In this document: positions 32,449 to 53,569 of the stretch, in pieces | Layout of the letters: each line of letters begins with the position of its first letter | Position numbering within the stretch: the stretch's first letter is position 1 | DNA from: Escherichia coli | GTDB lineage: Bacteria > Pseudomonadota > Gammaproteobacteria > Enterobacterales > Enterobacteriaceae | Direction: 5' to 3' (one strand) | Assembly: GCF_003018255.1 (NCBI RefSeq) | Contig: NZ_CP027440.1 | Length of the DNA: 64,000 bases | Made by a program: the position numbers and the translations under genes | Notes under the pieces: model-generated | The model's database searches: none | Told to the model about the DNA's origin: nothing | Seen by the model: the letters and a program-made list of their open reading frames with translations, nothing else

Positions 32449-32544
32449 TGGGGCAGTTCGTCGCGGATAAACAGGATTTCTCTATAACCTCCACAAGGAA
32501 GTGGTTATTATTGCGAAATCATCGCTTCACGGAAAGACGTCAGA

Positions 32545-34638: not shown

Positions 34639-34684
34639 CGTGGCGAATAATACCCGGTAGCACTGGCGCTACCGGGTCAATGTA

Positions 34685-35026: not shown

Positions 35027-35100
35027 AACTGCTATTCCTTGAAAATAGTGATTGTGATGAGCGGTGCGGGTGTGTTGGCGCACATCCGCACCGCGCTAAA
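35015..35100 (+). ncRNA. symR: Putative SymR antisense sRNA (antitoxin) overlapping the symE start and 5' UTR; boundaries approximate
   Basis: Known arrangement: SymR is transcribed antisense across the symE translation start. A TAGAAT -10-like hexamer at 35008-35013 and a strong stem-loop at 35061-35094 are present on the plus strand. Ends were not mapped. Confidence 0.3.
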
Positions 35101-35103
35101 TAC

Positions 35104-35119
35104 CTGGATATATCATCAG
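35104..35119. promoter_or_regulatory. Putative LexA box (CTG-N10-CAG) upstream of symE
   Basis: CTGGATATATCATCAG, an AT-rich dyad of the CTG-N10-CAG type, about 80 bp upstream of the symE start; symE is a known SOS gene. Confidence 0.45.
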
Positions 35120-35246
35120 TAAATACAGGGAAAGTCCAGCTAAAAATTAATGAAAATAAGATAGAAGTTAGCGTGAAATATAATTTTTGGTGATGTGAAT
35201 AAAGCGGCTATTGAGCCGCTTTATTGGTTTTATGAGGGCGAGAAAA

Positions 35247-36983
35247 TTAGTTTATCGCCGCGTTAGTCAGTGCGTCTGCAAGGTGCAGTTGGGTTTGTTG
35301 GGCGGTTTTTATACGAGTTTTAAGCTTATCGCATAGTTCATGAAGTAAACCTACTTGTGAAAATATTCTATATTGTTCAGTTAATGGTGGGCATGGGAAT
35401 GAATACAACATTACACTATTTGCTGATAGGTTGGGTTGTGCTGAGCCATTATCAAAGCGGTAAATCTGTGAGCGCCCAAATGGACTGGTTAAATAATTAT
35501 AAATATACCCTCCCATTTCTGTGATAAATGGTCTAATGATCATTAGTGATGAGGCAATAGCTCCTGTTTCATAGGGGGTTACAAAGGCAGTTTTACCAAA
35601 AGTTGCTCCTCGTAGGCAATAAACCAAATCACCTTTTTGAATTTTCCCACTTCTTAATTCATTAAATTTTCCTTCGGTTATAAAATTCATTTCTGTAACC
35701 GTAAGTGTACCATTTTTTTCTATATGTCCAGTATTGATCCAAGGAATACCTTGAGAAACATACTCATTTTTATTGGGATAATTACTTCCACGATCGCCAT
35801 TTATAAACTCTGATGTTAAACCAAATTTACACCACTCCCACCCTTCCGGCAGTTCAAACGGTTTTTCCTCATTGCTAATTGGCGGTAGTGGTTTTTGTTT
35901 TTTTATTTTCCCTTCTTTCACCAGTTGAGCTTTTTCCTGCGCAATTCGTTTGAGCAGTTCAGAGGCGGGTTCGTCATTCGGATCCTGCGGCACAAGTTTA
36001 CCCATTACGGCCAGTTGAAGAATGGTCTGTTTTAACGCATCCACGCTGGCTTCGGTGGTAAATAGGGTGTCGAAATGCTCGCTAATACGCGCCCAGTTTT
36101 CAGCCAGTTCCTCGGCGTTTTGGCTGTCTGTAAGCGTTCCCAACAGGGTTTCAACCAGTTGCTGATGTGCGTCCAGACTGGTCAGGGATTGCTGTTCCAG
36201 TTGGTCGCAGAGAACTGTAAGTTCTCTGATTTTTCTGACAATTTGTTGTTGTTCATTTATAGGCGGTAAAGCGATTATCTGTTGTTCCATTTTTTCTTTA
36301 GTCATATGGAGCATTGCAATACCGTTACCTTGCGATTTTATTTTATCTGTAATGGATAAAAGAAAATCATGTATAAAATATTTGTTTGAGTACTCTTCTG
36401 CAAATAAATTTAATTTCCATATATGGTAGTGATAAATTACTTTTTCTCCTGTCCAAATGAATGGCCCAAAAGATGCGGACCAAGCGTATATTAAATCACC
36501 ATTATTTATATATTTGTTTTCGTCTAATTGGAGGTCAGAGTAATACCACTCATTTGATGTGAATAGATTACCAACACGCAGCAAAGGAGTGCCTGTTTGA
36601 AGCATTTCATGTTTTTTATATGCTCGACCGTTAATAACCTCCATGAGATCTGCAACCCGCACCCACTCCCATCCCTCCGGCAATTCAAACGGCTTCTCTT
36701 CCTCGCTAATTCCTGGCAGTGGTTTTTGCTTTTTAATTTTACCTTGCTTCACCAGCTCTGCTTTTTCCGCAGCAATACGCTTCAGCAGCTCCGACGCCGG
36801 TTCATCATTCGGATCCTGCGGCACCAGTTTACCGCGCACCGCCAGTTCCAGAATCAGCTCACGCAATTTCTTAATGCCATACAAATCAATTTTACCGGAA
36901 CTGCCGCGCCCGGCGGTGGAACGGGTTTGCAACGCCGAGGTCCAGGTTTCCATATGATCAACGATCAGCTTTTCCACACTCAT
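35247..36983 (-). CDS. hsdS: Type I restriction-modification specificity subunit HsdS (non-EcoKI allele; family-IB-like domain order)
   Basis: 578-aa ORF with two variable target-recognition regions. A conserved segment occurs twice, at the N-terminus and in the centre (GKLVPQDPNDEPASELLKRIA.EKA.LVK.GKIKKQKPLP.IS.EEKPFELPEGWEW). Its ATG overlaps the hsdM stop (ATGA). Confidence 0.88.
   Translation of the reverse strand: MSVEKLIVDHMETWTSALQTRSTAGRGSSGKIDLYGIKKLRELILELAVRGKLVPQDPNDEPASELLKRIAAEKAELVKQGKIKKQKPLPGISEEEKPFELPEGWEWVRVADLMEVINGRAYKKHEMLQTGTPLLRVGNLFTSNEWYYSDLQLDENKYINNGDLIYAWSASFGPFIWTGEKVIYHYHIWKLNLFAEEYSNKYFIHDFLLSITDKIKSQGNGIAMLHMTKEKMEQQIIALPPINEQQQIVRKIRELTVLCDQLEQQSLTSLDAHQQLVETLLGTLTDSQNAEELAENWARISEHFDTLFTTEASVDALKQTILQLAVMGKLVPQDPNDEPASELLKRIAQEKAQLVKEGKIKKQKPLPPISNEEKPFELPEGWEWCKFGLTSEFINGDRGSNYPNKNEYVSQGIPWINTGHIEKNGTLTVTEMNFITEGKFNELRSGKIQKGDLVYCLRGATFGKTAFVTPYETGAIASSLMIIRPFITEMGGYIYNYLTSPFGRSQIYRFDNGSAQPNLSANSVMLYSFPCPPLTEQYRIFSQVGLLHELCDKLKTRIKTAQQTQLHLADALTNAAIN
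35832..36020. repeat. Internal direct repeat of hsdS, copy 2 (central conserved region)
   Basis: About 190 bp of high DNA identity to 36663-36852, including the shared core TCATTCGGATCCTGCGGCAC. Confidence 0.8.
36663..36852. repeat. Internal direct repeat of hsdS, copy 1 (N-terminal conserved region)
   Basis: Direct repeat partner of 35832-36020. Confidence 0.8.
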
Positions 36984-38452
36984 CAGTTAACCTCCTTGCC
37001 AGACAGCGCAGCGCCAAGAATATCGCGCAGTTGATTACGCAGCGTCTGGATCTCCGCCTGCTGTTTTGCATACTGCGCTAACAGTTCGTCCGGGTCATGG
37101 CTGACGGTTTCCGCCTGATGTGGGTTTTTAATATCCAGATTGAAGTTACGCGCAATCACGTCATCAATGCTGACTTTCCACGCTTGCTCATTCTCGATGC
37201 GGCTGGCAAAACCATCGGCCTCGTTACCCCACCAGTCAATCTCCGCCTGAAACTCTTCGAACTTCATCGGCTTGGTTTTACTGTAATTTTTCACGCCCGC
37301 CGGATACGGATGCTCATAGAACCAAATCTCTTTGGTTGGCTGACCTTTGGTAAAAAACAACAGGTTGGTTTTAATGCCGGTATAGGGGTTAAACACACCA
37401 TTCGGTAAACGCACGATGGTATGCAGATTGCACTCTTCGGTAAGCAGCTTTTTGATTTTGGTTTTAACGCCTTCGCCAAATAGCGTGCCATCCGGCAATA
37501 CCACCGCCGCGCGACCGTTTTTCGCCAGTACTTCCACAATCAGTTGCAGAAACAGATCCGCTGTTTCGCGGGTTTGCATCTCTGCCGGAAAGTTCTTCTC
37601 AATACCGTCTTCTTCCGTGCCACCAAACGGCGGGTTGGTAACAATGACATCCAGTTGCTCATCCCAGGAGGAAAGCGGTTTGTTCAGGGTGTTGTCGTGA
37701 CGAATTTGTACAGGCACTTCAATGCCGTGCAGCAGCATATTGGTGGTCGCCAGCAGGTGCGGAAGCTGTTTTTTCTCGACACCGTGGATCTGTTGTTGCA
37801 GCGTCTGATGATCGGCGACGCTCTTCACGTATTTGTTCTTTACATGATCGAACGCGCAGGCAAGAAAACCGCCCGTACCGCAGGCCGGGTCCATAATGGA
37901 TTCGCCGAGTTTCGGATCAACGCGATCCACCATAAAGCGAGTGACGGCGCGTGGCGTATAGAATTCGCCAGCATTGCCCGCAGATTGCAGATCTTTAAGG
38001 ATCTGTTCGTAAATATCACCAAACAGATGGCGTTCGCTGGCGCTGGTAAAGTCAATTTCGTTCAGCTTGTTGATCACCTGGCGCAGTAGCGTACCGTTTT
38101 TCATATAGTTATAGGCATCGCTGAACGCCTGCTTCACCACGTAGCCGCGTGGGTTTTTATCGATAGGCGCAGTGAGGTTTTTCAACGCCGGGAACAGATC
38201 ATCATTAACGAATTCCAGCAGGGAATCACCGGTAATGCCCTGAGCGTTTGCGGCCCAACTGCGCCATAAATAACGCTGTGGGATCGGATATTGATAGTTA
38301 TCCTGCTCCAGTTCCAGCGCCTCTTCCTGGGCATCGAAGATTTTCAAAAACAGCAGCCAGGAGAGCTGACCGAGACGCTGCGCATCGCCATCCACACCGG
38401 CATCTTTGCGCATAATATCTTGTAATGATTTGATTACTGAACTGATAGACAT
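36983..38452 (-). CDS. hsdM: Type I restriction-modification N6-adenine DNA methyltransferase HsdM (non-EcoKI allele)
   Basis: SAM-binding motif I (DPACGTGGFL) and catalytic motif IV (VVTNPPFGG). Start trimmed to MSISSVIKSL (489 aa). Confidence 0.88.
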   Translation of the reverse strand: MSISSVIKSLQDIMRKDAGVDGDAQRLGQLSWLLFLKIFDAQEEALELEQDNYQYPIPQRYLWRSWAANAQGITGDSLLEFVNDDLFPALKNLTAPIDKNPRGYVVKQAFSDAYNYMKNGTLLRQVINKLNEIDFTSASERHLFGDIYEQILKDLQSAGNAGEFYTPRAVTRFMVDRVDPKLGESIMDPACGTGGFLACAFDHVKNKYVKSVADHQTLQQQIHGVEKKQLPHLLATTNMLLHGIEVPVQIRHDNTLNKPLSSWDEQLDVIVTNPPFGGTEEDGIEKNFPAEMQTRETADLFLQLIVEVLAKNGRAAVVLPDGTLFGEGVKTKIKKLLTEECNLHTIVRLPNGVFNPYTGIKTNLLFFTKGQPTKEIWFYEHPYPAGVKNYSKTKPMKFEEFQAEIDWWGNEADGFASRIENEQAWKVSIDDVIARNFNLDIKNPHQAETVSHDPDELLAQYAKQQAEIQTLRNQLRDILGAALSGKEVN

Positions 38453-38518
38453 GTTGTATTCCATGAAAAACAAGGCCTTCTGCAACATGATGGTTGCAGA
38501 AGGCGCAAAAGAGAGTTG

Positions 38519-40951
38519 TTAAGCAGAGCGGGGCGGTAATTGGTAGATTTCGTTTTCCAGCTCGCTGAGCGCCTGATTATACCCGTTACGGTCGCCAAAT
38601 CCGGTTTTAATAATCTCCGGTAAGGTGCCCATGCTGTCGAATGGTTTAAGTTTCAGCACCTGAATACTTTCGATCTCCTGTACGCCCGCATCGGCGTATT
38701 TATCCAGCAGATTATCGAGCACGGCTTGCGCTGCTTCAGAGTATTTTGTGAAGTAGTTCCGCTTGCGCACGTTCTCGGCGCGCTCTTTGCGGGTTAACGG
38801 CGGCTGACCATACACTACGTGGCAAAGCATGTCGAACGGGTCGAGATCTTTACCGACTTCTTCTGCCAGTACTTCCCAGATGATCCCCTGTTGTTCCAGC
38901 TCGTGAATGATCGCTTCTTTGCGATCGGCGTCCTGCCACTTGCGGGTAAAGTCATCCAGCGAGGCATATTCTTTGAGCAGTGTTTTGCGGGTGTAATCTT
39001 TAAAAGATTCGGTAACCAGTTTACCGTCGGCATCGTAATACTGAACACGCTGCGCAATAACGCCCACCGCTACACCGTTGACGTGAAACTTGCGGATTTT
39101 CTTCTCGTCTTCTTCCGGAAGTGGGCCGACATCATCGGTATCGGTAACCTGGTATGGTGGCGCAGGCGGTTCATCAACGCCTGTTACCTGTTCGTCGTCA
39201 TGTTCGCTGATTTCTTCGAGTTTCTCTTCAAAATCAGATTCTGGATCGGCGATATCCTCTGATGTGGTATCCATGACTTTTTCGGGAATGCCATCGAAAC
39301 GCTCATCGGCAAACAGTTCGGTGGCTTTTTTAAAGTCGAGGATGGTAAACCAGAGTTTGCCGTAACGTTCGTCGATGCGTGTACCACGACCGATAATTTG
39401 CTTGAATTTGGTCATCGACTGGATGTTCTGGTCCAGTACTACCAGTTTGCAGGTTTTAGCATCCACACCAGTGGTCATCAGCTCTGAAGTGGTCGCGATA
39501 ACCGGGTACGCTTTTTTCGGGTTGATGAAGTTATCCAACTGAGCTTTGCCAATTTCATCATCGCCGGTGATTTTCATGACGTATTTGTCGTTCTTTTTCA
39601 CCTGCTCCGGGTTGAGATTCACCAGGGCGCGGCGCATACGTTCTGCATGATCGATGTCGTTACAGAAGACGATGGTTTTATCCATCGGGTTGGTGCGCTT
39701 GAGGTAGTCGGTAATGGTTCTGGCAACCAGTTCTGTCCGTTCGTCGATTACCATCGTGCGATCGAAATCTTTCTGGTTATAGATACGATCGTCGATCACT
39801 TCGCCGTTTAAGTCAGTTTGCCCTTTGGTTGGGCGCCAGCCTTGCAGATCAACATCAATATCAACACGGACAACTTTATAAGGGGCGAGGAAGCCGTCTT
39901 CGATCCCTTCTTTTAGCGAGTAGACGTAAACCGGATCGCCGAAGTAATCCGTGCTGGAGACTTCATGCGTCTCTTTTGGCGTGGCGGTTAAGCCAATTTG
40001 GGTGGCGGAACTGAAATAATCAAGGATCTCTCGCCAGGCGCTGTCTTCGGATGCGCTGCCGCGATGGCATTCGTCGATCACGATCAGATCGAAGAAATCT
40101 GGTGCGACTTGTTTAAACGCTTTTTGGTCTTCCTCCGGGCCAGTTATAGCCTGATAGAGCGCGAGGTGAATTTCATAAGCGGGATCAATGGTGCGTCCGC
40201 TGACTTTGGTCATTGCCGTACCAAATGGCTGGAAATCATTATTTTTGGTTTGGTCGACCAGAATGTTGCGATCGGCAAGGAACAAAATGCGTTTTTTATT
40301 TTTTGATTTCCACAGGCGCCAGATGATCTGGAATGCGGTATAGGTTTTCCCTGTTCCGGTCGCCATGACCAGCAGAACGCGGTTTTGCCCGTTGGAGACG
40401 GCTTCAATGGTTTTGTTGATTGCCTGAAGCTGGTAATAACGAGGCGATTTGCCGCTGCCATCGTCGTAATAGTCCTGAGTAATCACCGGAAGCTGAGCTT
40501 GTGTGTATCCTTTCCAGAGGCAGAATTTTTGCCAGAGTTCAGCGGGGGAGGGGAAGTCATCCAGCGTTATTTGCTTTTCAAGGCATTCACCTTCAGCTGC
40601 GGTGGCATCGCGGAAGATAAAGCCATCACCGTTGGTGGCAAAAACAAAAGGAACGTCCAGCAGGCGCGCATATTCAATGCCCTGTTGCATCCCTTTGCCA
40701 ATTTCATGTTTGTTGGCTTTTGCTTCAATCACGGCTAAGGGAATGCCTGGTTTGTGATACAGCACGATGTCAGCAGATTTTACCGTTCTGCGTGCCGCAA
40801 CTTTACCACGTACGATGACTTTACCGTTCCGGAGTTTGACCTCCTGTCTGATTTGCGTTGTGTTGTCCCAGCCTGCATTGAGAATGGCTGGCATAACGCA
40901 TTTGGTAATGATGTCTGCTTCCGTCAGGTTACTTAGGTTCAGTTCCGCCAT
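38519..40951 (-). CDS. hsdR: Type I restriction-modification endonuclease/translocase HsdR (810 aa, non-EcoKI; family-IB-like)
   Basis: N-terminal PD-(D/E)XK nuclease region ([19 protein letters not shown]), SF2 helicase Walker A (MATGTGKT) and motif II (DECHR). Much shorter than the roughly 1170-aa EcoKI HsdR. Confidence 0.88.
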
Positions 40952-41091
40952 GGGGTGTTCTCATCTAAATGCGATGCGTAAATTCTACACAGAAAAATAG
41001 ATGAATTCATCTGTTCAAAGAGTATTATCAGCGTTAAGTCACTGTTTTAAAGGTATTCTTGAGTTTCATCAATAGCTGGATAAGGATTCAT

Positions 41092-42060
41092 ATGGAGAAT
41101 GTTCGGTTCTTGCAAGGAGTGAAACAATATTTTTGTACTAAGGCATTAGATGTCATTCTGCTAATTTATCTACTCCTTGGTTTTATACTTCTCCCTTATA
41201 AATATCTGTGGAAAGATATTATTTTATCTCTGTACTTTGTTGGTATTCTTCTTTATGCATTAGTGGAAGAAAATCGCATTGCAGAATATATGGGGTATTT
41301 TGTTAAGTTCAGTAATAAAAACAGGTTGAATAGTTGTGCTGCCTGGTGTTCACTTATTGCATGGTTTATATTTTTGTTTTTTGTGCTTTCAATTAATATT
41401 TTTCCAGTCAGTGCCTCTGTATATATTTTTAGTGCTTTTTCATTATTTGTTTTTCTGGGGGGTATTTTTATTATATTAGAGTTAGAGTTTAAAGAAAATA
41501 AAAAATTAATGATTATTAGGTCTGTGACTATAGCAGTCATGCCAATTATATATTTATTCACAAGTAGTTATGCTTCCAGTTTATTTTTAAGTTTGAGTAA
41601 TCTAAACATTACGCTAACTCCATGGGTTGAGTATTTCTGGAAAGGGATGGTTTTTATGTTGCTTTTCTTCATGTTAATGCAACTTATTATCTATTTTGCT
41701 TTTTTAACTCTGGGGACTAAATTAAGTGTGTATAGGTTGTTTATACTTGCCGGAGCATTTGTAGTATCTACTTTTTTAGTGGCTTTTGCTTTAAAAAATG
41801 TAGAAGGTATTTCGTACTACGTTTTAAAAAGCACCATAGATTTTGAATGGCGTAATCAGATTAAATGTGGCCAGTTGAATATTTCACGTTCGAATGAAAA
41901 GTATTTTGGGTTTAATACTGATAAATATACTGTATTTTATTCCGGCAGAGATGGTAAATGGGGCTTTGATGAGTTGAAATGTAAGAAAGGTTCTGACAGG
42001 AGAGATGCATATTCTATTGAGAATGTCTCAGAATATAACGTGCCTGGATGGCTGAAATAA
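41092..42060 (+). CDS. Hypothetical multi-pass membrane protein with C-terminal soluble domain, strongly AT-rich (foreign composition); occupies the position of mrr in K-12
   Basis: ORF-track frame 41059-42060 (TTG start); trimmed to ATG at 41092, preceded by AAGGA. At least six hydrophobic helices (e.g. ILLIYLLLGFILLP, IAWFIFLFFVLSINIF, MVFMLLFFMLMQLIIYFAFLTL), then a charged C-terminal tail of about 80 aa. I recognise no catalytic motif. Confidence 0.6.
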   Translation: MENVRFLQGVKQYFCTKALDVILLIYLLLGFILLPYKYLWKDIILSLYFVGILLYALVEENRIAEYMGYFVKFSNKNRLNSCAAWCSLIAWFIFLFFVLSINIFPVSASVYIFSAFSLFVFLGGIFIILELEFKENKKLMIIRSVTIAVMPIIYLFTSSYASSLFLSLSNLNITLTPWVEYFWKGMVFMLLFFMLMQLIIYFAFLTLGTKLSVYRLFILAGAFVVSTFLVAFALKNVEGISYYVLKSTIDFEWRNQIKCGQLNISRSNEKYFGFNTDKYTVFYSGRDGKWGFDELKCKKGSDRRDAYSIENVSEYNVPGWLK

Positions 42061-42377
42061 GTCATCTTTATAAATTATATAGTAAAGGTTCTGGTCATAA
42101 ACGAGCATAGTTAAACATAAACGGGGCATACTCCACACACTTGATGTGCAGCAAGAAGTTGAACTCATGGCTTTGGTTAATAAATCTGACGAAGATATTG
42201 ATTACAGCGACATTCCTGCGTCTGGTAGCGAAGCATGGGCTGACGCCACACGCGGCAATTTTTTGCCAGATCCAGGTATTCACGCGCAATAAAACTTAGC
42301 GGAGGGGAGCACGTCGTTCTGTTTCCCCCTCACTGCTAAGTGGGGCATTGGGTTGCTTTACACTCAACCTTTTACGA

Positions 42378-43597: not shown

Positions 43598-45748
43598 TTA
43601 GTGGTGCGAAGAGATCTTCACGCCGCCTTCCGGGATTGGAACGTACGGAGTTTCTTTGTCAGTACGTTTGTCGCTGTTACGCACCGCAAGCCAGGTTTTG
43701 AAACCGTAGAAGATGATGCTGTACACCACAATCAGGAACAGAATACTCAGACCCGCGTTAGTGTAGTTGTTCACAACGATGTGGTTCATGTTGGCAATCT
43801 GCTGTGCCGTCAGGTCAGTACCGTTAGCAATCTTCTCTTTGTACTGGCTTGCCATGTAGAAGAAGCCTTCCATCTGCGGGTTGGTGCTGAACAGTTTCAG
43901 GCCCAGCGCCCAGGTGGTGCAGATAAGCAGCCATACAGCCGGAACAACAGTTACCCAGATGTATTGGGTGCGCTTCATCTTAATCAGCACAACGGTGCCC
44001 AGTACCAGTGCTACGGCTGCCAGCATCTGGTTGGAAATACCGAACAGCGGCCACAGGCTCTTAACGCCGCCCAGCGGATCGACCACGCCCTGATACAGCA
44101 GGTAGCCCCACAGACCCACACAGCCCGCAGTACCGATGATACCAGCAACCAGAGAGTCGGTTTTTTTCAGGAACGGGATGAAGTTACCCAGCAGGTCTTG
44201 CAGCATAAAGCGGCCAGAACGGGTACCCGCATCCAGCGCGGTCAGGATGAACAGGGCTTCGAACAGAATACCGAAGTGATACCAGAAGCCCATGTCAGCC
44301 ATCGGCAGCACTTTGTGGAACACGTGCGCGATACCTACCGCCAGCGTCGGCGCACCACCTGCACGGTTCAGGACAGAAGGTTCACCAATGTCTTTCGCGG
44401 TTTGCAGGATCTGCTCTGGCGAAATCACGAAGCCCCAGGAGCTGACGGTCGCCGCCGCGTGTGCGGTAACGTCTTTCAACTGCGCCATGATGATCGGCGC
44501 GTTCTCGCCACCCATTTCATGCAGGTTAGGCATGGTGATGCCAAGGCCAGCAGGCGGGGTGTTCATCGCGAAGTAAAGACCCGGTTCGATGATGGACGCA
44601 GCAACCAGCGCCATAATCGCCACGAAGGACTCCATCAGCATTGCGCCGTAGCCAATGAAACGCGCGTCGGTTTCGTTAGCCAGCAGTTTCGGCGTCGTAC
44701 CGGAAGAGATCAGCGCGTGGAAGCCAGATACCGCACCACAGGCGATGGTGATGAACAGGAACGGGAACAGAGCGCCTTTCCACAGCGGGCCAGTACCGTC
44801 AATGTACTGGGTCATCGCAGGCATTTTCAGTTCCGGGTTCAGCACCACGATACCCAGCGCCAGGCCGACGATAACGCCGATTTTCAGGAAGGTTGCCAGA
44901 TAGTCGCGTGGTGCGAGGATCAGCCACACCGGCAGCAGCGCGGAAACAAACGCATAGCCAATCAGCGCGAAGGTAATGGTGGTGTCTTTAAAGGTCAGTG
45001 CCGGACCCCAGTACGGATCGTGAGCAATCACGCCACCGAAGTAGATAGAGGCAACCAGCAGCACGATACCAATGACAGAGACTTCACCCACACGCCCCGG
45101 ACGAATAAAGCGCATGTAGATACCCATAAACAGCGCAATCGGTACGGTTGAGCAAACGGTGAAGACACCCCACGGACTTTCGGCCAGGGCTTTAACCACA
45201 ATCAGCGCCAGGACGGCGAGGATGATGATCATGATTAAGAAACAGCCAAACAGCGCGATAGTCCCCGGTACTGGCCCCATCTCTTCTTTGATCATCTCAC
45301 CAAGAGATGCGCCATTACGGCGAGAGGAGATAAACAGCACCATAAAGTCCTGAACCGCACCGGCCAGCACGACCCCCGCCAGCAGCCACAGCGTGCCAGG
45401 CAGGTAGCCCATCTGCGCGGCGAGAACCGGACCCACCAGCGGACCTGCACCGGCGATAGCGGCGAAGTGGTGACCAAACAACACGTAACGGTTGGTCGGA
45501 ACGTAGTTCAGACCGTCGTTGTTAATAACCGCAGGCGTCGCGCGCGTGGGGTCGAGTTTCATCACCTTCTGGGCGATGTACAGACTGTAGTAGCGATAAG
45601 CCACCAGATACACCGACACAGAGGCGACCACGATCCACAGGGCGCTGACGTGCTCCCCCCGACGTAATGCAACTACCGCGAGGCAGAATGCACCGATGAT
45701 TCCGAGAATCACCCAGGGTATGTGCTTGAATATCTTTTTAGTATCCAT
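43598..45748 (-). CDS. btsT: CstA-family pyruvate/H+ symporter BtsT (YjiY)
   Basis: Start trimmed to MDTKKIFKHIPWVILG (716 aa); large polytopic CstA-family transporter. Confidence 0.92.
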   Translation of the reverse strand: MDTKKIFKHIPWVILGIIGAFCLAVVALRRGEHVSALWIVVASVSVYLVAYRYYSLYIAQKVMKLDPTRATPAVINNDGLNYVPTNRYVLFGHHFAAIAGAGPLVGPVLAAQMGYLPGTLWLLAGVVLAGAVQDFMVLFISSRRNGASLGEMIKEEMGPVPGTIALFGCFLIMIIILAVLALIVVKALAESPWGVFTVCSTVPIALFMGIYMRFIRPGRVGEVSVIGIVLLVASIYFGGVIAHDPYWGPALTFKDTTITFALIGYAFVSALLPVWLILAPRDYLATFLKIGVIVGLALGIVVLNPELKMPAMTQYIDGTGPLWKGALFPFLFITIACGAVSGFHALISSGTTPKLLANETDARFIGYGAMLMESFVAIMALVAASIIEPGLYFAMNTPPAGLGITMPNLHEMGGENAPIIMAQLKDVTAHAAATVSSWGFVISPEQILQTAKDIGEPSVLNRAGGAPTLAVGIAHVFHKVLPMADMGFWYHFGILFEALFILTALDAGTRSGRFMLQDLLGNFIPFLKKTDSLVAGIIGTAGCVGLWGYLLYQGVVDPLGGVKSLWPLFGISNQMLAAVALVLGTVVLIKMKRTQYIWVTVVPAVWLLICTTWALGLKLFSTNPQMEGFFYMASQYKEKIANGTDLTAQQIANMNHIVVNNYTNAGLSILFLIVVYSIIFYGFKTWLAVRNSDKRTDKETPYVPIPEGGVKISSHH

Positions 45749-46015
45749 AGTAAAACCTGGCATGTATTGATTAATAGTTGGCCGAAGCCGTTCTAGGTTT
45801 GCGTTGCGTTTGAGGAGGTAAATTGACCGCTATCCTGCAGTGATGTTGCCAGAGTTACGCGCGCGTAAAGTAAGGTAAATAACTGAGTGGTTATTTTAGG
45901 GACGTAAGCGGTCAGGAATGGCGGTGAGCGGTTGGGCAAGAATTATTCGTCGGGTGGATATGTGATTGAGATCACAATAAAAATGCCCCTTCGATAATTA
46001 ACCGAAGGGGCGTTC

Positions 46016-47236
46016 TTAGAAGAGAGTGTCTAATTCTGCCAGTACGTTGTAGTCGTCATCAGTCAATAACAACGTTTTCCATTTGTCGAAGGTCAGGCAC
46101 GGATGCGATGTGCCAAACACCAGAATATCCCCCACTTGCACGTCGCTATTAGCTGACAGTTGCAACATGCAGTGCTGATCCATAATACCTGTACTGCGAA
46201 TCGCCTGTGGATCAAATGCCAGTGATTTGCCGTTGCGGTAGTGGGCGACTGGTTGCGGCAGTCCGGCGTCGAAGGCGCAATCACGCTTACCAAAATTTAC
46301 CACCGCACGATCAGCTTCCGGCACCGATTGCACCATGGCGACCAGTTCCAGCGCAGATGTGAGATCGCCTGCCAGATCGCAGGCCACAGGATCACGGGCA
46401 AGCAACTGTTGTTGTGCCGCGTCGTAGATCCCGGTGTCGTGAGTGATGTAGCAGCCAGGGCGAATAACAATGCGGCAGTTATCAGGCTTTTCTGCCGCCA
46501 GCCAGATATTGCACACCACGTCATACCAGACCGTGCCTGCTCCGGTGAGAATAAACTCGCCATCAACCAGACTTGCCATATCACAGGCCAGTTGTGCGGC
46601 ATCCCGCAGCAGAGCTTCTACCTGCGGTTGTGGATCGTCACCGTGTAAAACGCCTTCATATAACTCAAGCCCCCGCAGGCGTAACCCCGGTAATTGGGCT
46701 GCCTGTTTAGCCAGTGTCAGTGCGGCATCCCTTGAGCGGCAACCACAGCGCCCGCCGGGGACACCCAACTCAATCATCACGTTCAGTGTCTGTTGCTGAC
46801 TGGCAAAAAAGGCAGACAAAGCGCGGGCGTTCTCAATGCTGTCGATACAGCAGATAAAATCGACCGTCGGGTAATGTCGTTGCAACTGGGCAATCAACTG
46901 CATATTCGCCTTGCCGACCAGCTGGTTAACCATCAGCACTCGCTGAATACCGCTCGCCATTGCCGCACCAGCCTGCCATGCGCTACCGACACCTATTGCC
47001 CAGGCGCCTGCCGCCTGCTGCGCCTGAAAAATCCACGGCGTCATGGTGGTTTTACCGTGCGGTGCCAGCGAAACGCCGCGCGCGTCAGCATAACGCTGCA
47101 TCCACGTAATGTTGTTCTCCAGGGCCTGCTTTTTAATGATCGCGGCAGGTAAACAGACATCTTCGGCAAGGAGATTTGCGGGCATTTGCATCAGGGCAGA
47201 TTTATGGGGAACCAGAGGTTCTGAGTGGTATTTCAT
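46016..47236 (-). CDS. DSD1-family PLP enzyme (alanine-racemase-fold N-domain; D-serine dehydratase / D-threonine aldolase-like)
   Basis: 406-aa ORF; N-terminal region LPAAIIKKQALENNITWMQRYADARGVSLAPHGKTTM resembles the lysine-containing PLP site (RPH-K-T-H-K type) of DSD1/YGL196W enzymes. True start among M1/M16/M18 is uncertain. Confidence 0.65.
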   Translation of the reverse strand: MKYHSEPLVPHKSALMQMPANLLAEDVCLPAAIIKKQALENNITWMQRYADARGVSLAPHGKTTMTPWIFQAQQAAGAWAIGVGSAWQAGAAMASGIQRVLMVNQLVGKANMQLIAQLQRHYPTVDFICCIDSIENARALSAFFASQQQTLNVMIELGVPGGRCGCRSRDAALTLAKQAAQLPGLRLRGLELYEGVLHGDDPQPQVEALLRDAAQLACDMASLVDGEFILTGAGTVWYDVVCNIWLAAEKPDNCRIVIRPGCYITHDTGIYDAAQQQLLARDPVACDLAGDLTSALELVAMVQSVPEADRAVVNFGKRDCAFDAGLPQPVAHYRNGKSLAFDPQAIRSTGIMDQHCMLQLSANSDVQVGDILVFGTSHPCLTFDKWKTLLLTDDDYNVLAELDTLF

Positions 47237-47286
47237 AACATTTACCTTTTAAGTTTTTCACCGTATCGGATGTGAGTATCACTTGT

Positions 47287-47313
47287 AACTAAATGAAATA
47301 TAAATATTTAGTT
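47287..47313. promoter_or_regulatory. Perfect 8-bp inverted repeat (AACTAAAT-N11-ATTTAGTT) in the divergent promoter region; candidate operator
   Basis: Read directly from the sequence; sits in the AT-rich gap between the DSD1-like gene and the D-aminoacylase operon. Confidence 0.4.
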
Positions 47314-47427
47314 TATTTATCTTATTATTTATGAATAAAAGTATCATAAAATCATCTGGGTTTTGCGTAGTTTTCCACTGTTTTTCGTCCTTGTAAATGG
47401 TTAACTTGTCACCATTGCAGAAATGGA

Positions 47428-48879
47428 GTGACGAACATGCAGGTTGACTGGTTAATCAAAAATGTGACCGTTATCGACGGTAGCGGCGGCCCTGAATTTC
47501 GCGGTGACGTGGCAATAACAGGTGATCGGATTGTCGATATTGCCCCTGCGCTTAACGTTACGGCGCAGCAGGTCATTGACGGGGAAGGGCGGGTGCTGGC
47601 ACCCGGGTTTATCGACGTTCATACCCATGACGATATCAACGTTATTCGCATCCCGGAATATCTGCCAAAGATCAGCCAGGGGATCACTACGGTGATTGTC
47701 GGTAACTGCGGGATTAGTGCGGCGTCGGCGAAAATGAAAGGTGAAGTTCCTGACCCGATGAATCTGTTGGGGGAAGCAGAGCACTTTATTTATCCTACCG
47801 TTGAAAGCTATGCCCAGGCAGTGGAAGCAGCCAGGCCGTCACTGAACGTTGGCACGCTGATTGGTCATACGGCGCTGCGTAATAACCATATGGACGACCT
47901 GTTTCGCCCGGCGACGGTGGATGAAATTGCCGCTATGCGTGCCGACTTACGTCTGGCGTTGAGTCAGGGGGCGCTGGGGTTAAGTTCCGGGCTGGCCTAT
48001 GCAACGGCATTTCAGGCGACTACCGAAGAAGTCATGGCGCTGGCGGAAGAATTAGCCGGTGAGAAGGGCGTTTATACCACCCATCTGCGTTCTGAATTTG
48101 AACCGATTCTCGATGCCCTGGATGAGGCGTTTCGTATTGGGCGTCATGGCAAAGTGCCTGTCGTGGTTTCCCACCATAAATGTGCCGGGGCGAAAAACTG
48201 GGGGCGGACAAAAGAAACGTTGGCCTTTTTTGACCAAATGCGTCAACACCAGGAAATTGGCTGCGATGTCTACCCTTACTCAGCCAGCTCTTCAACGCTG
48301 GATCTCAAACAAGTCACCGACGAATTCGATATTGTGATCACCTGGTCACAAACACATCCGCAGCAGGCCGGGAAAACACTGGCGCAAATCGCCATCGACT
48401 GGCAGATGAGTATGCTGGAGGCCGCGAAGCTGCTAATGCCTGCCGGGGCTATCTATTACAACATGGACGAGCGCGACGTCCGCCGAGTGTTGAGTTATCC
48501 GGTCAGTATGATTGGCTCTGACGGCCTGCCCAATGATCCCATGCCGCATCCACGTTTATGGGGCGCCTTCCCTCGCGTGCTGGGCCACTATTGCCGTGAT
48601 GAAGGCTTATTCCCACTGACCACGGCTATCCACAAAATGACCGGGCTTTCTGCCAGCCGTTTTCGCCTGCCCCAGCGTGGACTGGTGAAAGTCGGTTATT
48701 TTGCGGACCTGGTGTTGTTCGATCCACAAACCATTCGTGATGTTGCCAGCTTTTCTGATCCCAAACGCCCGGCAGATGGCATTGAGGCGGTGATGGTGAA
48801 CGGCGTTATGAGCTATGGTCCCGATAAACATATTACAGGCCGTGCGGGACGCTTCCTGCGCCGGCAGACCTCACATTAA
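47428..48879 (+). CDS. N-acyl-D-amino-acid deacylase (D-aminoacylase) family amidohydrolase
   Basis: 483-aa ORF; N-terminus DWLIKNVTVIDGSGGPEFRGDVAITGDRIVDIAPAL...APGFIDVHTHDD is typical of metal-dependent D-aminoacylases. Start is M1 or M4. Confidence 0.75.
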   Translation: MTNMQVDWLIKNVTVIDGSGGPEFRGDVAITGDRIVDIAPALNVTAQQVIDGEGRVLAPGFIDVHTHDDINVIRIPEYLPKISQGITTVIVGNCGISAASAKMKGEVPDPMNLLGEAEHFIYPTVESYAQAVEAARPSLNVGTLIGHTALRNNHMDDLFRPATVDEIAAMRADLRLALSQGALGLSSGLAYATAFQATTEEVMALAEELAGEKGVYTTHLRSEFEPILDALDEAFRIGRHGKVPVVVSHHKCAGAKNWGRTKETLAFFDQMRQHQEIGCDVYPYSASSSTLDLKQVTDEFDIVITWSQTHPQQAGKTLAQIAIDWQMSMLEAAKLLMPAGAIYYNMDERDVRRVLSYPVSMIGSDGLPNDPMPHPRLWGAFPRVLGHYCRDEGLFPLTTAIHKMTGLSASRFRLPQRGLVKVGYFADLVLFDPQTIRDVASFSDPKRPADGIEAVMVNGVMSYGPDKHITGRAGRFLRRQTSH

Positions 48880-48882
48880 GGA

Positions 48883-49278
48883 GTGAATATGAGCATTAAA
48901 CGTTACGGTACGGAAGGTGGAACAGGCACTGGCGGGCAGCATTTGCCTTTTGCCAGGGCGGTTGAGGCGGGCGGCTGGCTGTACGTCTCCGGGCAAACAC
49001 CCATGAAAAACGGTGAAGTGGTAGAAGGCGGAATCGTTGAACAGTCACGACTGGCGATCCAAAACTGTGTCGACATCATGACTGAAGCCGGTTATAGCCT
49101 GGCGGATGTGGTTCACGTGAAAGTGATCCTGACCGACGCCCGCTATTTCCAGTCATTTAATAAAGTATTCAGAGAATTTTTTGGCGAGAATCCGCCTGCA
49201 CGTATTTGTTGTGTGGCTGATCTGGTTGTCGATTGTAAAGTCGAAGTCGATGTGACCTGTTATAACGCGACCCGCTAA
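48883..49278 (+). CDS. RidA/YjgF/TdcF-family reactive enamine/imine deaminase
   Basis: 131-aa ORF (...GGWLYVSGQTPMKNGEVVEGG...ARICCVADL...), characteristic of the RidA fold; starts 4 nt after the aminoacylase stop. Confidence 0.75.
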   Translation: MNMSIKRYGTEGGTGTGGQHLPFARAVEAGGWLYVSGQTPMKNGEVVEGGIVEQSRLAIQNCVDIMTEAGYSLADVVHVKVILTDARYFQSFNKVFREFFGENPPARICCVADLVVDCKVEVDVTCYNATR

Positions 49279-49380
49279 TAAATTTAAGAATTAAAAAAAC
49301 AGACCGCAATTGAGTGCTGAATACATTCAGCACTCCGGGAACTCTTACATTAATTTCTCTCTACTGGCAGGATGTGAATT

Positions 49381-50850
49381 ATGAACAGTCATATCTTTTT
49401 AGTCGGCTTTATTATTTATGCCATCGCCATGATTTGGCTTGGTTGGTTTGTTTCTCGTAATCAGAAAAGCGGAGAAGATTTTCTGCTGGGCGGGCGTTCG
49501 CTGCCGCTGTTTCTGACGCTGGGGTCAACCGTTGCCACGATGGTTGGCACGGGTTCCAGTATGGGGGCAGTGGGCTTTGGCTACAGCAATGGCTGGGCCG
49601 GAATGCTTTATGGCGTCGGTGGAGCCGTAGGTATATTGCTGGTGGCGTGGCTGTTTGCACCGGTACGTAAATTACGTTTTATGACCATGAGTGAAGAACT
49701 CTCTTATTATACTGGCGGTAGTCATTTAATTAAAAATATTGTCGGCCTGATGATATTTATTGCCTCTATTGGCTGGCTGGGGGCGCATATATTAGGTGGA
49801 AGTATGTATCTTGCCTGGGCGACGGGTATTGATCTTACTGTGGCAAAATTAATTATCGCCTTAGCTTTTGCGATTTATGTTATTATCGGCGGTTATTCGG
49901 CGGTAGTGTGGACAGATACTATTCAGGCCCTAATTCTGTTCTTTGGCTTTATATTAATGGCTATTCTTGCCGTTGTTCACGTTGGCGGCTGGAGTGCGAT
50001 TGAGCAGGCGATGGACCCAAAAGCGATGAGCCTGTTTGCGATTGATAAAATGGGCGTGCTGCCTGCGCTTTCGCTGGCACTGGTTATTGGCGTAGGTGTG
50101 CTGGCAACACCGTCTTATCGCCAGCGTATTTACTCGGGTAAAGATGTTCCCTCTGTACGCCGTTCGTTTGTTATTACTGGGGTGTTATATCTGTTCTTCT
50201 CGATTTTGCCTGCCATTATCGGCATGGCGGCGTTCACCATGAACCCAAATCTGGAAAACAGCAACTACGCCTTCTTGTTCGCGACCAGTTTCTTACCTGC
50301 CATTCTTGGGCTGGTGGTGCTGATTGCCGGGCTTTCAGCCACCATGTCTTCTGCCAGCTCCGATGCCATCGCGGCGGTGGCGATTATGATGCGCGACGTC
50401 TACACCATGATTACCGGCAGAATGCCGCCGGAGGACAAGGCCATTACTTACTCACGCTGGATGTTGACCTTTGTTATTGGCCTGGCGCTGGTCTTTGCTC
50501 TGACCTCTAATGACATCATCAGCTACATTACCAAAATGATTTCGATGCTGATGTCCGGGCTGTTTATCTGCTCGATTCTCGGTCGCTTCTGGCTACGCTT
50601 TAACTGGCAGGGCGCGCTGGCGGTGTTAGTGAGCGGTATGGTGATGTCAATTGTGGTGCTGATGAATGCCGACTGGCTGGCTTACTGGGGTAACCCGTGT
50701 ATTCCGTCAGTGCTGGGCAGCCTGGTCGCTGGCGTACTGGTGACGTTGGTAACGCCAGCAAGTCAGGTCAGCCGGGAAGAAGCTTTGGCGATTATCACCA
50801 ATGAGCGTGAAAACCAGAGTGTCGTGATCACCAAACCTGAAGAAGCATAA
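49381..50850 (+). CDS. Sodium:solute symporter family (SSF) transporter
   Basis: 489-aa polytopic membrane protein with PutP/PanF-like helices; third gene of the plus-strand operon. Confidence 0.75.
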   Translation: MNSHIFLVGFIIYAIAMIWLGWFVSRNQKSGEDFLLGGRSLPLFLTLGSTVATMVGTGSSMGAVGFGYSNGWAGMLYGVGGAVGILLVAWLFAPVRKLRFMTMSEELSYYTGGSHLIKNIVGLMIFIASIGWLGAHILGGSMYLAWATGIDLTVAKLIIALAFAIYVIIGGYSAVVWTDTIQALILFFGFILMAILAVVHVGGWSAIEQAMDPKAMSLFAIDKMGVLPALSLALVIGVGVLATPSYRQRIYSGKDVPSVRRSFVITGVLYLFFSILPAIIGMAAFTMNPNLENSNYAFLFATSFLPAILGLVVLIAGLSATMSSASSDAIAAVAIMMRDVYTMITGRMPPEDKAITYSRWMLTFVIGLALVFALTSNDIISYITKMISMLMSGLFICSILGRFWLRFNWQGALAVLVSGMVMSIVVLMNADWLAYWGNPCIPSVLGSLVAGVLVTLVTPASQVSREEALAIITNERENQSVVITKPEEA

Positions 50851-50859
50851 CCAACAATG

Positions 50860-51765
50860 CTAATCGCCAAGTGGCTGGCGGTTAGCGCCCCCACGGTGGC
50901 TGTCTAACACCAGTTTTATCCGCCGCAGGCGATCTTTCGCCTGCGCTTTATTTGCCATTGCCAGTTCTGTTGCCAGTACATCGACCATGGCTAACATCGC
51001 GTAGCGGGAAGGGGTGGGCTTAAAGATGTAATCACTTTCCTGAACCAGTAACGGCAATACCAGATCCACCTGTTCCGCCAGCGGTGTTTGTGCTGGTGTA
51101 ATGGCAATAACACGCGCGCCATACTGACGGGCGATTGCCGCACTTTCGATGATTTCCGGTGTATAACCGCCCAGCGACAGTACAATCACCACATCCTGCG
51201 GCATCACTGCCGAGCACATCATTCTCATCATCAGGGCATCATTCTGACTGACCACCGGTAGCCCCAGACGGAATAAACGGTACTGAATCTCCTGTGAACA
51301 GATGGTGGAACCGCCGCCAGTTCCCAATGCAAGAATTTGCCGCGCCTGACTTAACCAGCTTACAGCCTGGCTGATGGCATTCATATCCAGCGAACGACGA
51401 TGCGTTTCCAGCACGCTAATAATCGCTTCGTAGATCCCCTGAACACCGTCAAGATCCGGTACATCGAGAATAAACCGCTGCCCGACAGCCAGTGACTGCG
51501 CCAGTTTGACTTTCAACTCGCGGACATCTTTGCACCCCAGTGCACGGGCAAAACGCGTCACCGACGCCTGACTGGTTTGCGTTAACCGCGCCAGCTCAGC
51601 AATGGGCAGTTCCACCGCGGCGGGGACATCATCAAGAATAAATTGTGCGATACGCTTTTCAGTGGCGGTTAACGCCATAAACCGTTCGGTAATACAGGAG
51701 ATGATATCGATGCTATAAGCCATAGGAGTATCACTGGTTCGAAGAAGATTGATACTTTGTACCAT
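50860..51765 (-). CDS. RpiR/MurR-family transcriptional regulator (helix-turn-helix + SIS sugar-phosphate-binding domain)
   Basis: N-terminal HTH (LTATEKRIAQFILDDV...IAELARLTQTSQASVTRFARALG) followed by a SIS-like domain (ILALGTGGGS). Start uncertain. Confidence 0.72.
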   Translation of the reverse strand: MVQSINLLRTSDTPMAYSIDIISCITERFMALTATEKRIAQFILDDVPAAVELPIAELARLTQTSQASVTRFARALGCKDVRELKVKLAQSLAVGQRFILDVPDLDGVQGIYEAIISVLETHRRSLDMNAISQAVSWLSQARQILALGTGGGSTICSQEIQYRLFRLGLPVVSQNDALMMRMMCSAVMPQDVVIVLSLGGYTPEIIESAAIARQYGARVIAITPAQTPLAEQVDLVLPLLVQESDYIFKPTPSRYAMLAMVDVLATELAMANKAQAKDRLRRIKLVLDSHRGGANRQPLGD

Positions 51766-51904
51766 AAACTGCCGCTATAGAGTGTGACCCTCACAAAAAA
51801 CGCAAGTTTGCTGCAACAAAAGCAGTGCCGACGCTTTTCCACAGCATAAAGTTTTCCACCACCAGGCCGACAACCAGTGTATCTGTCTAGTGGAAAGAGA
51901 AACC

Positions 51905-53569
51905 ATGTTAAAACGTATCAAGATCGTGACCAGCTTACTGCTGGTTTTGGCCGTTTTTGGCCTTTTACAACTGACATCAGGCGGTCTGTTCTTTAATGCC
52001 TTAAAGAATGACAAAGAAAATTTCACTGTTTTACAAACCATTCGCCAGCAGCAATCCACGCTGAATGGCAGCTGGGTTGCGTTGTTGCAGACGCGTAACA
52101 CCCTCAACCGCGCGGGTATCCGCTACATGATGGATCAGAATAATATTGGTAGCGGTTCAACCGTTGCTGAGCTGATGCAGAGTGCCAGTATTTCGCTGAA
52201 ACAGGCGGAAAAAAACTGGGCGGATTACGAAGCGTTGCCGCGTGACCCGCGTCAGAGCACCGCCGCAGCGTCAGAGATCAAACGTAATTACGATATTTAT
52301 CACAATGCGCTGGCGGAGCTGATCCAACTGTTAGGTGCAGGCAAAATCAACGAGTTCTTTGATCAACCGACCCAGGGATATCAGGACGGTTTCGAGAAGC
52401 AGTATGTGGCTTACATGGAGCAAAACGATCGGCTCTATGATATCGCCGTCAGCGATAACAATGCCTCCTACAGCCAGGCGATGTGGATTCTGGTAGGCGT
52501 GATGATCGTCGTACTGGCGGTCATCCTCGCCGTCTGGTTCGGTATTAAAGCCTCGCTGGTCGCGCCAATGAATCGCCTGATTGACAGCATTCGTCATATT
52601 GCAGGCGGCGATCTGGTGAAACCGATTGAGGTGGATGGCTCTAATGAGATGGGGCAACTGGCAGAGAGTTTGCGCCATATGCAGGGAGAGCTGATGCGTA
52701 CCGTCGGTGATGTGCGCAACGGGGCCAATGCCATCTATAGCGGTGCCAGCGAAATCGCCACCGGCAATAACGATCTCTCTTCGCGCACCGAGCAACAGGC
52801 CGCTTCGCTGGAAGAGACGGCAGCCAGCATGGAGCAACTGACCGCAACGGTGAAGCAGAACGCCGAAAATGCGCGTCAGGCCAGCCACCTGGCGTTAAGT
52901 GCTTCCGAAACGGCGCAACGCGGCGGCAAAGTGGTGGATAACGTGGTGCAGACTATGCGCGATATCTCCACCAGTTCGCAGAAAATCGCCGATATTATCA
53001 GCGTAATTGACGGTATTGCCTTCCAGACCAATATTCTGGCTTTGAACGCGGCGGTTGAAGCAGCGCGCGCGGGTGAGCAAGGGCGCGGTTTTGCGGTGGT
53101 TGCGGGAGAAGTGCGTAATCTGGCCCAGCGTAGCGCTCAGGCTGCTCGTGAAATTAAAAGCCTGATTGAAGACTCGGTGGGGAAAGTGGATGTTGGCTCT
53201 ACGCTGGTCGAAAGCGCCGGGGAAACAATGGCGGAGATTGTCAGTGCCGTGACCCGCGTGACGGACATTATGGGCGAAATTGCTTCTGCTTCTGATGAGC
53301 AGAGCCGTGGTATCGATCAGGTTGGCTTAGCGGTTGCTGAGATGGACCGGGTAACCCAACAAAACGCCGCGCTGGTGGAAGAATCTGCCGCTGCCGCCGC
53401 CGCGCTGGAAGAGCAGGCCAGTCGCCTGACCGAAGCAGTGGCAGTGTTCCGGATTCAGCAACAGCAGCAACAGCAGCGTGAAACATCGGCTGTAGTAAAA
53501 ACCGTGACGCCAGCTACGCCGCGTAAAATGGCCGTGGCAGATAGCGGCGAGAATTGGGAAACGTTTTAA
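51905..53569 (+). CDS. tsr: Serine chemoreceptor Tsr (methyl-accepting chemotaxis protein I), allele with an extended Gln run
   Basis: Start trimmed to [24 protein letters not shown] signalling domain; C-terminal ...NWETF pentapeptide; seven-Gln run ([13 protein letters not shown]). Confidence 0.93.

Follow-up and report, generated by a model that had tools for sequence, protein, structure and literature searches.

We analysed a window of 64,000 nucleotides (64 kb) from the Escherichia coli contig NZ_CP027440.1, in which the gap between btsT and tsr at positions 46016-51765 holds five intact open reading frames (ORFs). These are homologues of ongC, ongB, ongD, ongIT and ongR, and on balance we favour the view that together they form the cytoplasmic core of a pathway of the ong type, which would act on an oxidised N-acetylhexosamine, the default substrate being N-acetyl-D-glucosaminate (GlcNAc1A). 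The genes and borders of the locus are listed here by window coordinates:

46016-47236, minus strand: ongC homologue, 406 amino acids, a fold-type III pyridoxal phosphate (PLP) "amino acid deaminase"
47437-48879, plus strand: ongB homologue, a D-aminoacylase-like amidohydrolase; the longest ORF runs from GTG 47428, and the RefSeq and homologue start is 47437
48883/48889-49278, plus strand: ongD homologue, a RidA-subfamily protein
49381-50850, plus strand: ongIT homologue, a sodium:solute symporter family (SSF) protein matching the sodium:solute symporter superfamily (SSS)
50860-51723, minus strand: ongR homologue, RpiR/MurR family (HTH_6 plus SIS); the longest ORF extends to 51765, and the RefSeq start is at 51723
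43598-45763, minus strand: btsT, flanking gene
51905-53569, plus strand: tsr, flanking gene
45932-51844: DNA absent from K-12, delimited by BLAST with the K-12 spacer and by the extents of matches in island-free genomes
51847-51873, plus strand: sigma-28-type tsr promoter TAAAGTTT-N11-GCCGACAA, a boundary marker outside the island

The original prediction had described this block as a catabolic module for N-acyl-D-amino acids, and the genes have the strands and order that it gave; the same five coding sequences are annotated by RefSeq in near-identical genomes. It had also given K-12 a short btsT-tsr spacer, correctly, since the two genes lie 377 bp apart in a K-12 derivative and the DNA there is unrelated. 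When the K-12 spacer was compared with the window by BLAST, homology ended at about 45920-45931 and restarted at 51845, with about 5.9 kb of window DNA standing against 135 unrelated bp in K-12 at the same place. No remnants of the island were detected in the K-12 spacer at word size 7. The point where K-12 homology restarts precedes the -35 element of the tsr promoter by 2 bp; we take this promoter to be of the sigma-28 class from its consensus. The ong-specific part begins at about 45995, and the preceding 63 bp (45932-45994) are also found in alleles that carry an hpa cluster at this site.

An NCBIfam search returned generic, below-cutoff names only for all five proteins, ongR matching HexR/RpiR, and the deciding lead on the identity of the amidohydrolase came from a sequence search of the Protein Data Bank (PDB). 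The protein matched OngB of Pseudoalteromonas prydzensis (PpOngB, 9KB1; 4e-167, 54% identity) ahead of the Alcaligenes D-aminoacylase AfDam (4e-136, 47% identity), with a Bordetella N-acyl-D-glutamate deacylase at 3e-116. Its identity to KleDacyl of Klebsiella pneumoniae (9G5M) is 84%. By homology the island amidohydrolase belongs to an OngB sister family within the D-aminoacylase lineage and not to the dihydroorotases or allantoinases, so the reassignment that could have undone the original prediction on this point did not arise.

According to the crystal structure of PpOngB with GlcNAc1A, the acetamido and carboxylate anchors are common to OngB and D-aminoacylases, and a second set of residues (Ala193, Glu226, Ala256, Ser290, Ser291, Ser292, Gln298 and Gly348) forms a polar sugar pocket (PMC12017989). 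Our alignment shows that E. coli OngB has C94, H219 and H249 as metal ligands and D365 as the catalytic residue, and these residues identify a mononuclear Cys/His/His subtype V amidohydrolase centre with a catalytic Asp. The residues that anchor the acetamido and carboxylate groups are all kept. The sugar pocket is identical to that of PpOngB at seven of eight positions (A190, E223, A253, S287, S288, S289 and Q295), and none of the seven varies among the 49 enterobacterial, 11 Alteromonadales-type and 9 Vibrionaceae homologues compared; at the eighth position, Gly348 of PpOngB is replaced by Asn345. Outside the shared Glu and middle Ser, the pocket of the Alcaligenes D-aminoacylase consists of Phe, Met, Gly, Thr, Leu and Met. 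The D-aminoacylase pocket (Phe191, Met254, Leu298 and Met346 with Thr at the Ser292 position as in AfDam, or Arg298 as in BbDam) is absent: E. coli and every one of the 49 enterobacterial orthologues have Ala, Ala, Gln, Asn and Ser at the corresponding positions.

Biochemical work on relatives bears on the same question. Three Pseudoalteromonas OngBs, one of them 57% identical to PpOngB, hydrolyse GlcNAc1A only and not N-acetyl-D-amino acids. KleDacyl hydrolyses N-acetyl-D-Met, -Phe and -Trp stereospecifically, with a Km of 19-32 mM and a kcat/Km of 1.5-2.8 per min per mM (32 mM and 2.8 per min per mM for N-acetyl-D-Met), and it was studied as a D-acylase alone, sugar acids lying outside that study (PMC12149444). 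PpOngB acts on GlcNAc1A at 1.6 per s per mM (PMC12017989), and the D-acylase efficiency of KleDacyl is thus about 30-fold lower. The D-acylase activity of KleDacyl looks like a promiscuous side activity, and the substrates used in the published assays of this Klebsiella "D-acylase" were probably not its physiological ones.

The evidence points to a 2-acetamido-2-deoxy-D-hexonate as the substrate class, with GlcNAc1A as the established substrate of the family, and E. coli OngB is predicted to be a de-N-acetylase of such a compound. GlcNAc1A is formally an N-acetyl-D-amino acid. The substrate class named in the original prediction can thus be refined to an N-acetylated amino-sugar acid; its lean toward ordinary N-acyl-D-amino acids is disfavoured by the OngB-type pocket, the poor D-acylase activity of KleDacyl and the inactivity of the tested OngBs on such substrates.

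We also fetched a Pseudoalteromonas ong locus and compared the island proteins with it one by one. Over nearly their full length, the homologues are identical at 45% (OngC), 54% (OngB), 84% (OngD), 58% (OngIT) and 44% (OngR) of positions. The OngC homologue matched PDB 3GWQ with 1e-106 and D-threonine aldolases with just 1e-28. A PLP lysine motif, PHGK (K62), and an SHPC motif (H378, C380) are common to the island and marine OngC, and the C-terminal His/Cys motif serves as a zinc ligand. Records of the marine OngC homologues show Ala_racemase_N and D-ser_dehydrat domains. Island OngC is predicted to be a D-hexosaminate ammonia-lyase/dehydratase that yields a 2-keto-3-deoxy-hexonate and ammonia. 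In OngD, the segment PPARI aligns with KPARV of archetypal RidA and retains the arginine of "PAR", which corresponds to Arg105 of Salmonella RidA; OngD is predicted to hydrolyse the enamine or imine released by OngC. OngIT is a predicted inner-membrane sugar-acid importer and OngR a predicted repressor.

The roles of the ong genes were set by knock-outs and in-vitro assays in P. prydzensis ACAM 620 (Jiang et al. 2022, PMC9537276). In that organism OngIT, an SSS transporter of the glucose/sialate-like type, imports GlcNAc1A, and OngB converts it to D-glucosaminate and acetate but has no activity on N-acetyl-D-amino acids (PMC9537276). The PLP enzyme OngC turns D-glucosaminate into 2-keto-3-deoxy-D-gluconate (KDG) and ammonia and also deaminates D-Ser and D-Thr, KdgK phosphorylates KDG, the RidA protein OngD is essential with its role unexplained, and the RpiR protein OngR is a repressor relieved by GlcNAc1A (PMC9537276). 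Jiang et al. recognised an ong cluster by at least four co-clustered homologues of >30% identity (PMC9537276), and the island has five of five at 44-84%.

Our own evidence comprises homology, active-site residues, synteny and purifying selection. The Pseudoalteromonas experiments and textbook E. coli metabolism are our basis for the substrate, for what OngD does, for OngR as a repressor and for the involvement of KdgK and Eda, all of which we infer. In the proposed mechanism, OngIT would take up a free 2-acetamido-2-deoxy-D-hexonate, by default GlcNAc1A arising from C1 oxidation of GlcNAc or chitin. OngB would deacetylate it to a D-2-amino-2-deoxy-hexonate and acetate, and OngC would use PLP to eliminate the C3 hydroxyl and the amino group, giving a 2-keto-3-deoxy-hexonate and ammonia, while OngD would accelerate hydrolysis of the enamine/imine intermediate. 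OngR would keep the genes off until the substrate arrives, and a sugar-acid substrate would explain why the regulator is of the RpiR type. Import, de-N-acylation, PLP-dependent elimination or deamination, a RidA protein and an RpiR regulator were already the logic of the original prediction and agree with the ong mechanism; what did not hold was an ordinary N-acyl-D-amino acid, D-Ser or D-Thr as the substrate.

The island contains no kinase or aldolase, and no PfkB or DGOK kinase homologue was found in the 64-kb window, so the product would have to pass to the core pathway. The core genome of E. coli encodes both KdgK and Eda, which this strain is taken to possess, and these would finish the breakdown of KDG. 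The TonB receptor OngOT, the periplasmic GH20 enzyme OngA and a lytic polysaccharide monooxygenase (LPMO) were likewise found neither in the island nor in the window, and E. coli would therefore only scavenge monomer that others make or that chemical or host oxidation releases.

We then scanned species-representative genomes for related clusters. An orthologous cluster was found in 49 enterobacterial species, with OngB identities of 77-86% and the order ongC / ongB-ongD-(ongIT) / ongR kept; the carrier genera include Klebsiella, Raoultella, Serratia, Buttiauxella, Cedecea, Kluyvera, Rahnella, Pantoea and Franconibacter. The five-gene layout of E. coli occurs in seven of the 49, and in another twelve the transporter is missing as well. 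The remaining variants carry two further genes between ongIT and ongR. Their kinase belongs to the DGOK family (Pfam PF05035, 3e-89; PDB 3R1X, 4e-88), and their aldolase matches DgoA, the 2-keto-3-deoxy-6-phosphogalactonate (KDPGal) aldolase of E. coli (2V81), with 2e-83 versus 1e-13 for Eda, a call between DgoA and Eda that is based on overall similarity alone. A Val154/Thr161 stereochemical determinant that we considered for KDPGal versus 2-keto-3-deoxy-6-phosphogluconate (KDPG) aldolases found no support in the literature searched and was not used. The DgoK- and DgoA-type genes occur neither in the window nor in Escherichia sp. E1V33. Marine-type loci (compared in Pseudoalteromonas, Vibrio harveyi, V. 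vulnificus, Thaumasiovibrio, Psychromonas and Motilimonas) instead combine a KDG kinase of the PfkB family, and in some cases an aldolase of the Eda type (1EUA, 4e-55, versus 2V81, 2e-16), with GH20 or a chitinase, and no GH20, PfkB or Eda-type gene was found within 8 kb at any of the enterobacterial loci surveyed. This split of the lower pathway between enteric and marine clusters is new here; Jiang et al. are silent on it (PMC9537276). One contig labelled Chryseobacterium sp. 18061 also had an ong cluster of the usual enterobacterial kind, including DGOK and DgoA and with an OngB identity of 82%, probably through contamination or a mislabelled assembly.

Several observations weigh against GlcNAc1A as the substrate in E. 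coli. DgoK- and DgoA-type genes stand between ongIT and ongR in 30 of the 49 enterobacterial species (an example is locus L047, 7208-8645), and the residue at pocket position 348 differs by clade, with Asn throughout the Enterobacterales, Gly in Alteromonadales, Psychromonas and Pseudomonas, and Cys in Vibrionaceae. No LPMO source enzyme or hexosaminidase is linked to the E. coli island, and we found no published GlcNAc1A experiment for any enterobacterial member. The linkage to DgoK/DgoA raises the possibility that the enteric clade yields 2-keto-3-deoxy-D-galactonate (KDGal), and hence that its substrate may be N-acetyl-D-galactosaminate (GalNAc1A). It is conceivable, though we hold it only tentatively, that the enterobacterial clade including the island is specialised for this C4 epimer, taking N-acetyl-D-galactosaminate/D-galactosaminate through KDGal to DgoK and DgoA, which would be supplied from within the cluster in the Klebsiella type and by the core dgo genes in E. 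coli. The kinase and aldolase of those 30 clusters, set beside the PfkB, Eda-type and GH20 genes of the marine ones, argue for such a switch, as does Asn in place of Gly/Cys at position 348 of every enterobacterial OngB, and the chemistry of OngC at C2/C3 should be the same for both epimers. However, the Asn could be a lineage marker only, the sugar contacts are otherwise seven-eighths identical to those of the GlcNAc1A-bound enzyme, the E. coli island has no DgoK/DgoA paralogues, and our literature search found no catabolic pathway for galactosaminate. The core dgo operon is induced by D-galactonate and not by KDGal, whereas kdgK and eda are induced by KDG via KdgR. Because KDG, unlike KDGal, induces its own core pathway, a cluster of these five genes is easier to reconcile with KDG. 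The enzymes may also accept both epimers. A broader form of the idea, which we find somewhat doubtful, is that enteric ong-like clusters serve not chitin oxidation but an undescribed GalNAc1A/galactosaminate route via KDGal into the De Ley-Doudoroff lower pathway. Its substrate would be C1-oxidised N-acetylgalactosamine (GalNAc) from mucin O-glycans, a plausible source under the oxidative and nitrosative conditions of the gut, and such a route, if real, would be the amino-sugar counterpart of the host-oxidation nutrients galactarate and glucarate.

Two further explanations appear far less probable than uptake and breakdown of an oxidised amino sugar. General salvage of N-acyl-D-amino acids, with the deacylase freeing D-Ser, D-Thr or D-Met and the DSD1-like enzyme deaminating D-Ser and D-Thr, is consistent with the D-aminoacylase ancestry of the amidohydrolase and its 47% identity to the Alcaligenes enzyme, with the cleavage of N-acetyl-D-Met, -Phe and -Trp by the 84%-identical KleDacyl, and with the deamination of D-Ser and D-Thr by Pseudoalteromonas OngC (PMC9537276). 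We regard it as quite unlikely, given that the D-aminoacylase specificity residues are all exchanged for the OngB set, that the efficiency of KleDacyl as a D-acylase is very low with its Km of 19-32 mM, and that the OngBs tested are inactive on these substrates; a sugar-type RpiR/SIS regulator, a glucose/sialate-like SSS transporter and the sugar-acid kinases and aldolases linked in relatives also fit it badly. It is even harder to credit that the island is a cryptic or decaying remnant, a truncated ong cluster without a growth phenotype in E. coli. Three of eight ong genes are indeed missing, and the block is kept in just 3.6% of complete genomes. Yet no copy examined has a broken ORF among the five, dN/dS is 0-0.11 against divergent copies (enterotoxigenic E. 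coli, ETEC, and Escherichia sp. E1V33), several other genera keep the five-gene layout, and the control-region motifs are conserved. A kinase with the missing function exists in the core genome of E. coli and could stand in for it. The island genes are under purifying selection.

The whole block is present in 193 of 5426 complete E. coli genomes (about 3.6%), in keeping with the strain-variable character that had been proposed for it, and 159 of the 193 carriers have the left junction of the window. Many carriers are poultry isolates or avian-pathogenic E. coli (APEC), and human and water isolates occur too. Among the 40 best-matching carriers whose left junction is identical, about 23 were poultry or avian-pathogenic E. 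coli (chicken, turkey, APEC O2, APEC O78), which suggests a possible enrichment by host or lineage.

The btsT-tsr spacer (45764-51904 in the window) has no cargo in K-12 or in the type strain ATCC 11775 (4059440-4063623). It is occupied by the hpa 4-hydroxyphenylacetate cluster in PCN033 and by a hydroxyproline-catabolism cluster of about 10 kb together with ong in O6:H16 ETEC; in the window its cargo is ong alone. The spacer thus acts as a recombination hot spot for alternative metabolic cargo. No mobility genes (integrase, transposase) or tRNA target were found at the island, a repeat search found no direct or inverted repeats flanking it, and its composition is ordinary, with a gene GC content of 52-57%. 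It does not have the features of a mobile genomic island. In K. pneumoniae the ong cluster adjoins hpaR and an Ldh-family gene, an arrangement that echoes the E. coli cargo and suggests exchange through homologous recombination of a larger ancestral region. Use of D-glucosaminic acid on Biolog plates was considered as a proxy for the island and dropped. On PM-01 the E. coli type strain is positive for this compound and K-12 negative (PMC4334874), yet the site is empty in ATCC 11775, so the phenotype of that strain depends on another system.

The control regions and non-coding elements of the island include the following:

45985-46011, minus strand: terminator-like hairpin of 11 pairs plus a T run, directly after the ongC stop codon and also detected as an inverted repeat in the repeat search
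47237-47436: divergent ongC/ongB control region, AT-rich
49312-49335: perfect 24-nucleotide hairpin-forming inverted repeat GAGTGCTGAAT ACA... TTCAGCACTC between ongD and ongIT, with no T run
51750-51764, minus strand: 15-bp near-palindrome TGGTACAAAGTATCA, 27-41 bp upstream of the ongR ATG

When the intergenic regions were aligned with MAFFT, three blocks of the ongC/ongB spacer (47332-47346, 47361-47384 and 47391-47407) proved to be conserved across 18 enterobacterial genera and are candidate promoter or operator elements. A scan of the control regions for sigma-70 promoters gave no more matches than shuffled sequence. Upstream of ongR the pattern TGGTAC-AAA-GTA(C/T)CA (TGGTACAAAGTA(C/T)CA) is kept in 17 of 18 enterobacterial loci inspected, and a search of the window with this consensus, allowing up to three mismatches, matched the ongR site alone. 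Its half-site AAAGTATCA recurs, as a half-site only, in the conserved ongC-ongB block 47332-47346, and the word AGTATCA occurs seven times in the 64-kb window, four of them within the two ong control regions. The palindrome at 51750-51764 is a plausible candidate for an OngR (auto)operator. The inverted repeat between ongD and ongIT could be an element for transcript processing or stability, or an operator. We also noted a perfect CRP-consensus palindrome, TGTGATTGAGATCACA, at 45961-45976, some 200 bp upstream of where btsT starts. This palindrome lies within the segment 45932-45994 that is common to the ong-type and hpa-type alleles and missing in K-12, with possible effects on the catabolite control of btsT or of the adjacent cargo.

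Elsewhere in the window, the 3' part of tsr (53455-53480) encodes a glutamine run, QQQQQQQ, that is longer than in K-12, and tsr copies differ at this run by multiples of 3 nucleotides (genes of 1656, 1665 and 1674 nucleotides). Positions of about 32500-42300 form a variable "immigration control" region with a DUF262 pseudogene, a GmrSD-type restriction endonuclease, symE and an EcoAI-family type I restriction-modification system. An AT-rich gene at 41092-42060 encodes a hypothetical membrane protein of 322 amino acids, and an ORF of 63 amino acids adjoins yjiA. Other ong-positive strains have BrnT/BrnA and a different restriction-modification set in this region.

The island is a known kind of accessory metabolic module, since the ong pathway was published in 2022 and E. 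coli clusters were tabulated with it. In Supplementary Data 3 of Jiang et al. exactly this set of five genes is entered for 13 environmental E. coli strains, for E. fergusonii and for an Escherichia sp., and is scored as an ong cluster without lpmo, ongOT-1, kdgK and ongA (PMC9537276). We found no literature on the use of N-acetylglucosaminate by E. coli or on the island beyond that supplementary table. About 3.6% of sequenced E. coli are predicted to be able to use an oxidised amino sugar as a carbon and nitrogen source, and as carriers lack the enzymes that make the substrate, they would consume a product made by others. The residual interest lies in the physiology of a gut bacterium that cannot make the substrate, in the requirement for RidA and in the DgoK/DgoA linkage. 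The island is an inexpensive and clearly bounded test case for whether gut Enterobacteriaceae feed on LPMO-derived or host-oxidised amino sugars, and also for the function of RidA in the pathway and for a possible galacto switch of the enteric clade.

In comparison with known systems, the island is related to the ong locus of P. prydzensis (PMC9537276; PMC12017989) by its ongC, ongB, ongD, ongIT and ongR homologues, by the same OngB metal site and seven of eight pocket residues, and by the predicted order of import, deacetylation, PLP-dependent deamination and formation of a keto-deoxy acid. It differs in having no ongOT-1, GH20 OngA, PfkB KdgK or LPMO, in Asn instead of Gly at residue 348, and in its carrier, which is an enteric commensal or pathogen where P. 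prydzensis is a marine bacterium that degrades chitin. Gene order differs as well: in E. coli ongC is divergent and ongR lies at the far end, convergent with ongIT, whereas P. prydzensis has ongC-R-B-D. The seven-gene cluster of Klebsiella and Raoultella, to which KleDacyl belongs, has orthologues that are 75-96% identical in the same order (ongC / ongB ongD ongIT ... ongR), with the conserved control-region blocks and the ongR palindrome, but adds the DgoK-like and DgoA-like genes between ongIT and ongR that E. coli lacks. D-aminoacylases resemble the island deacylase in their 47% identity (AfDam) and differ in a hydrophobic or basic pocket (Phe, Met, Leu or Arg, Met, Thr) where E. coli has Ala, Ala, Gln, Asn and Ser, and the island context is sugar-acid catabolism. 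The D-glucosaminate pathway dgaABCDEF of Salmonella has no homologous genes and no deacetylase, begins with uptake and phosphorylation by the phosphotransferase system and uses the ammonia-lyase DgaE; like the island, it brings an aminated gluconate into the lower Entner-Doudoroff pathway.

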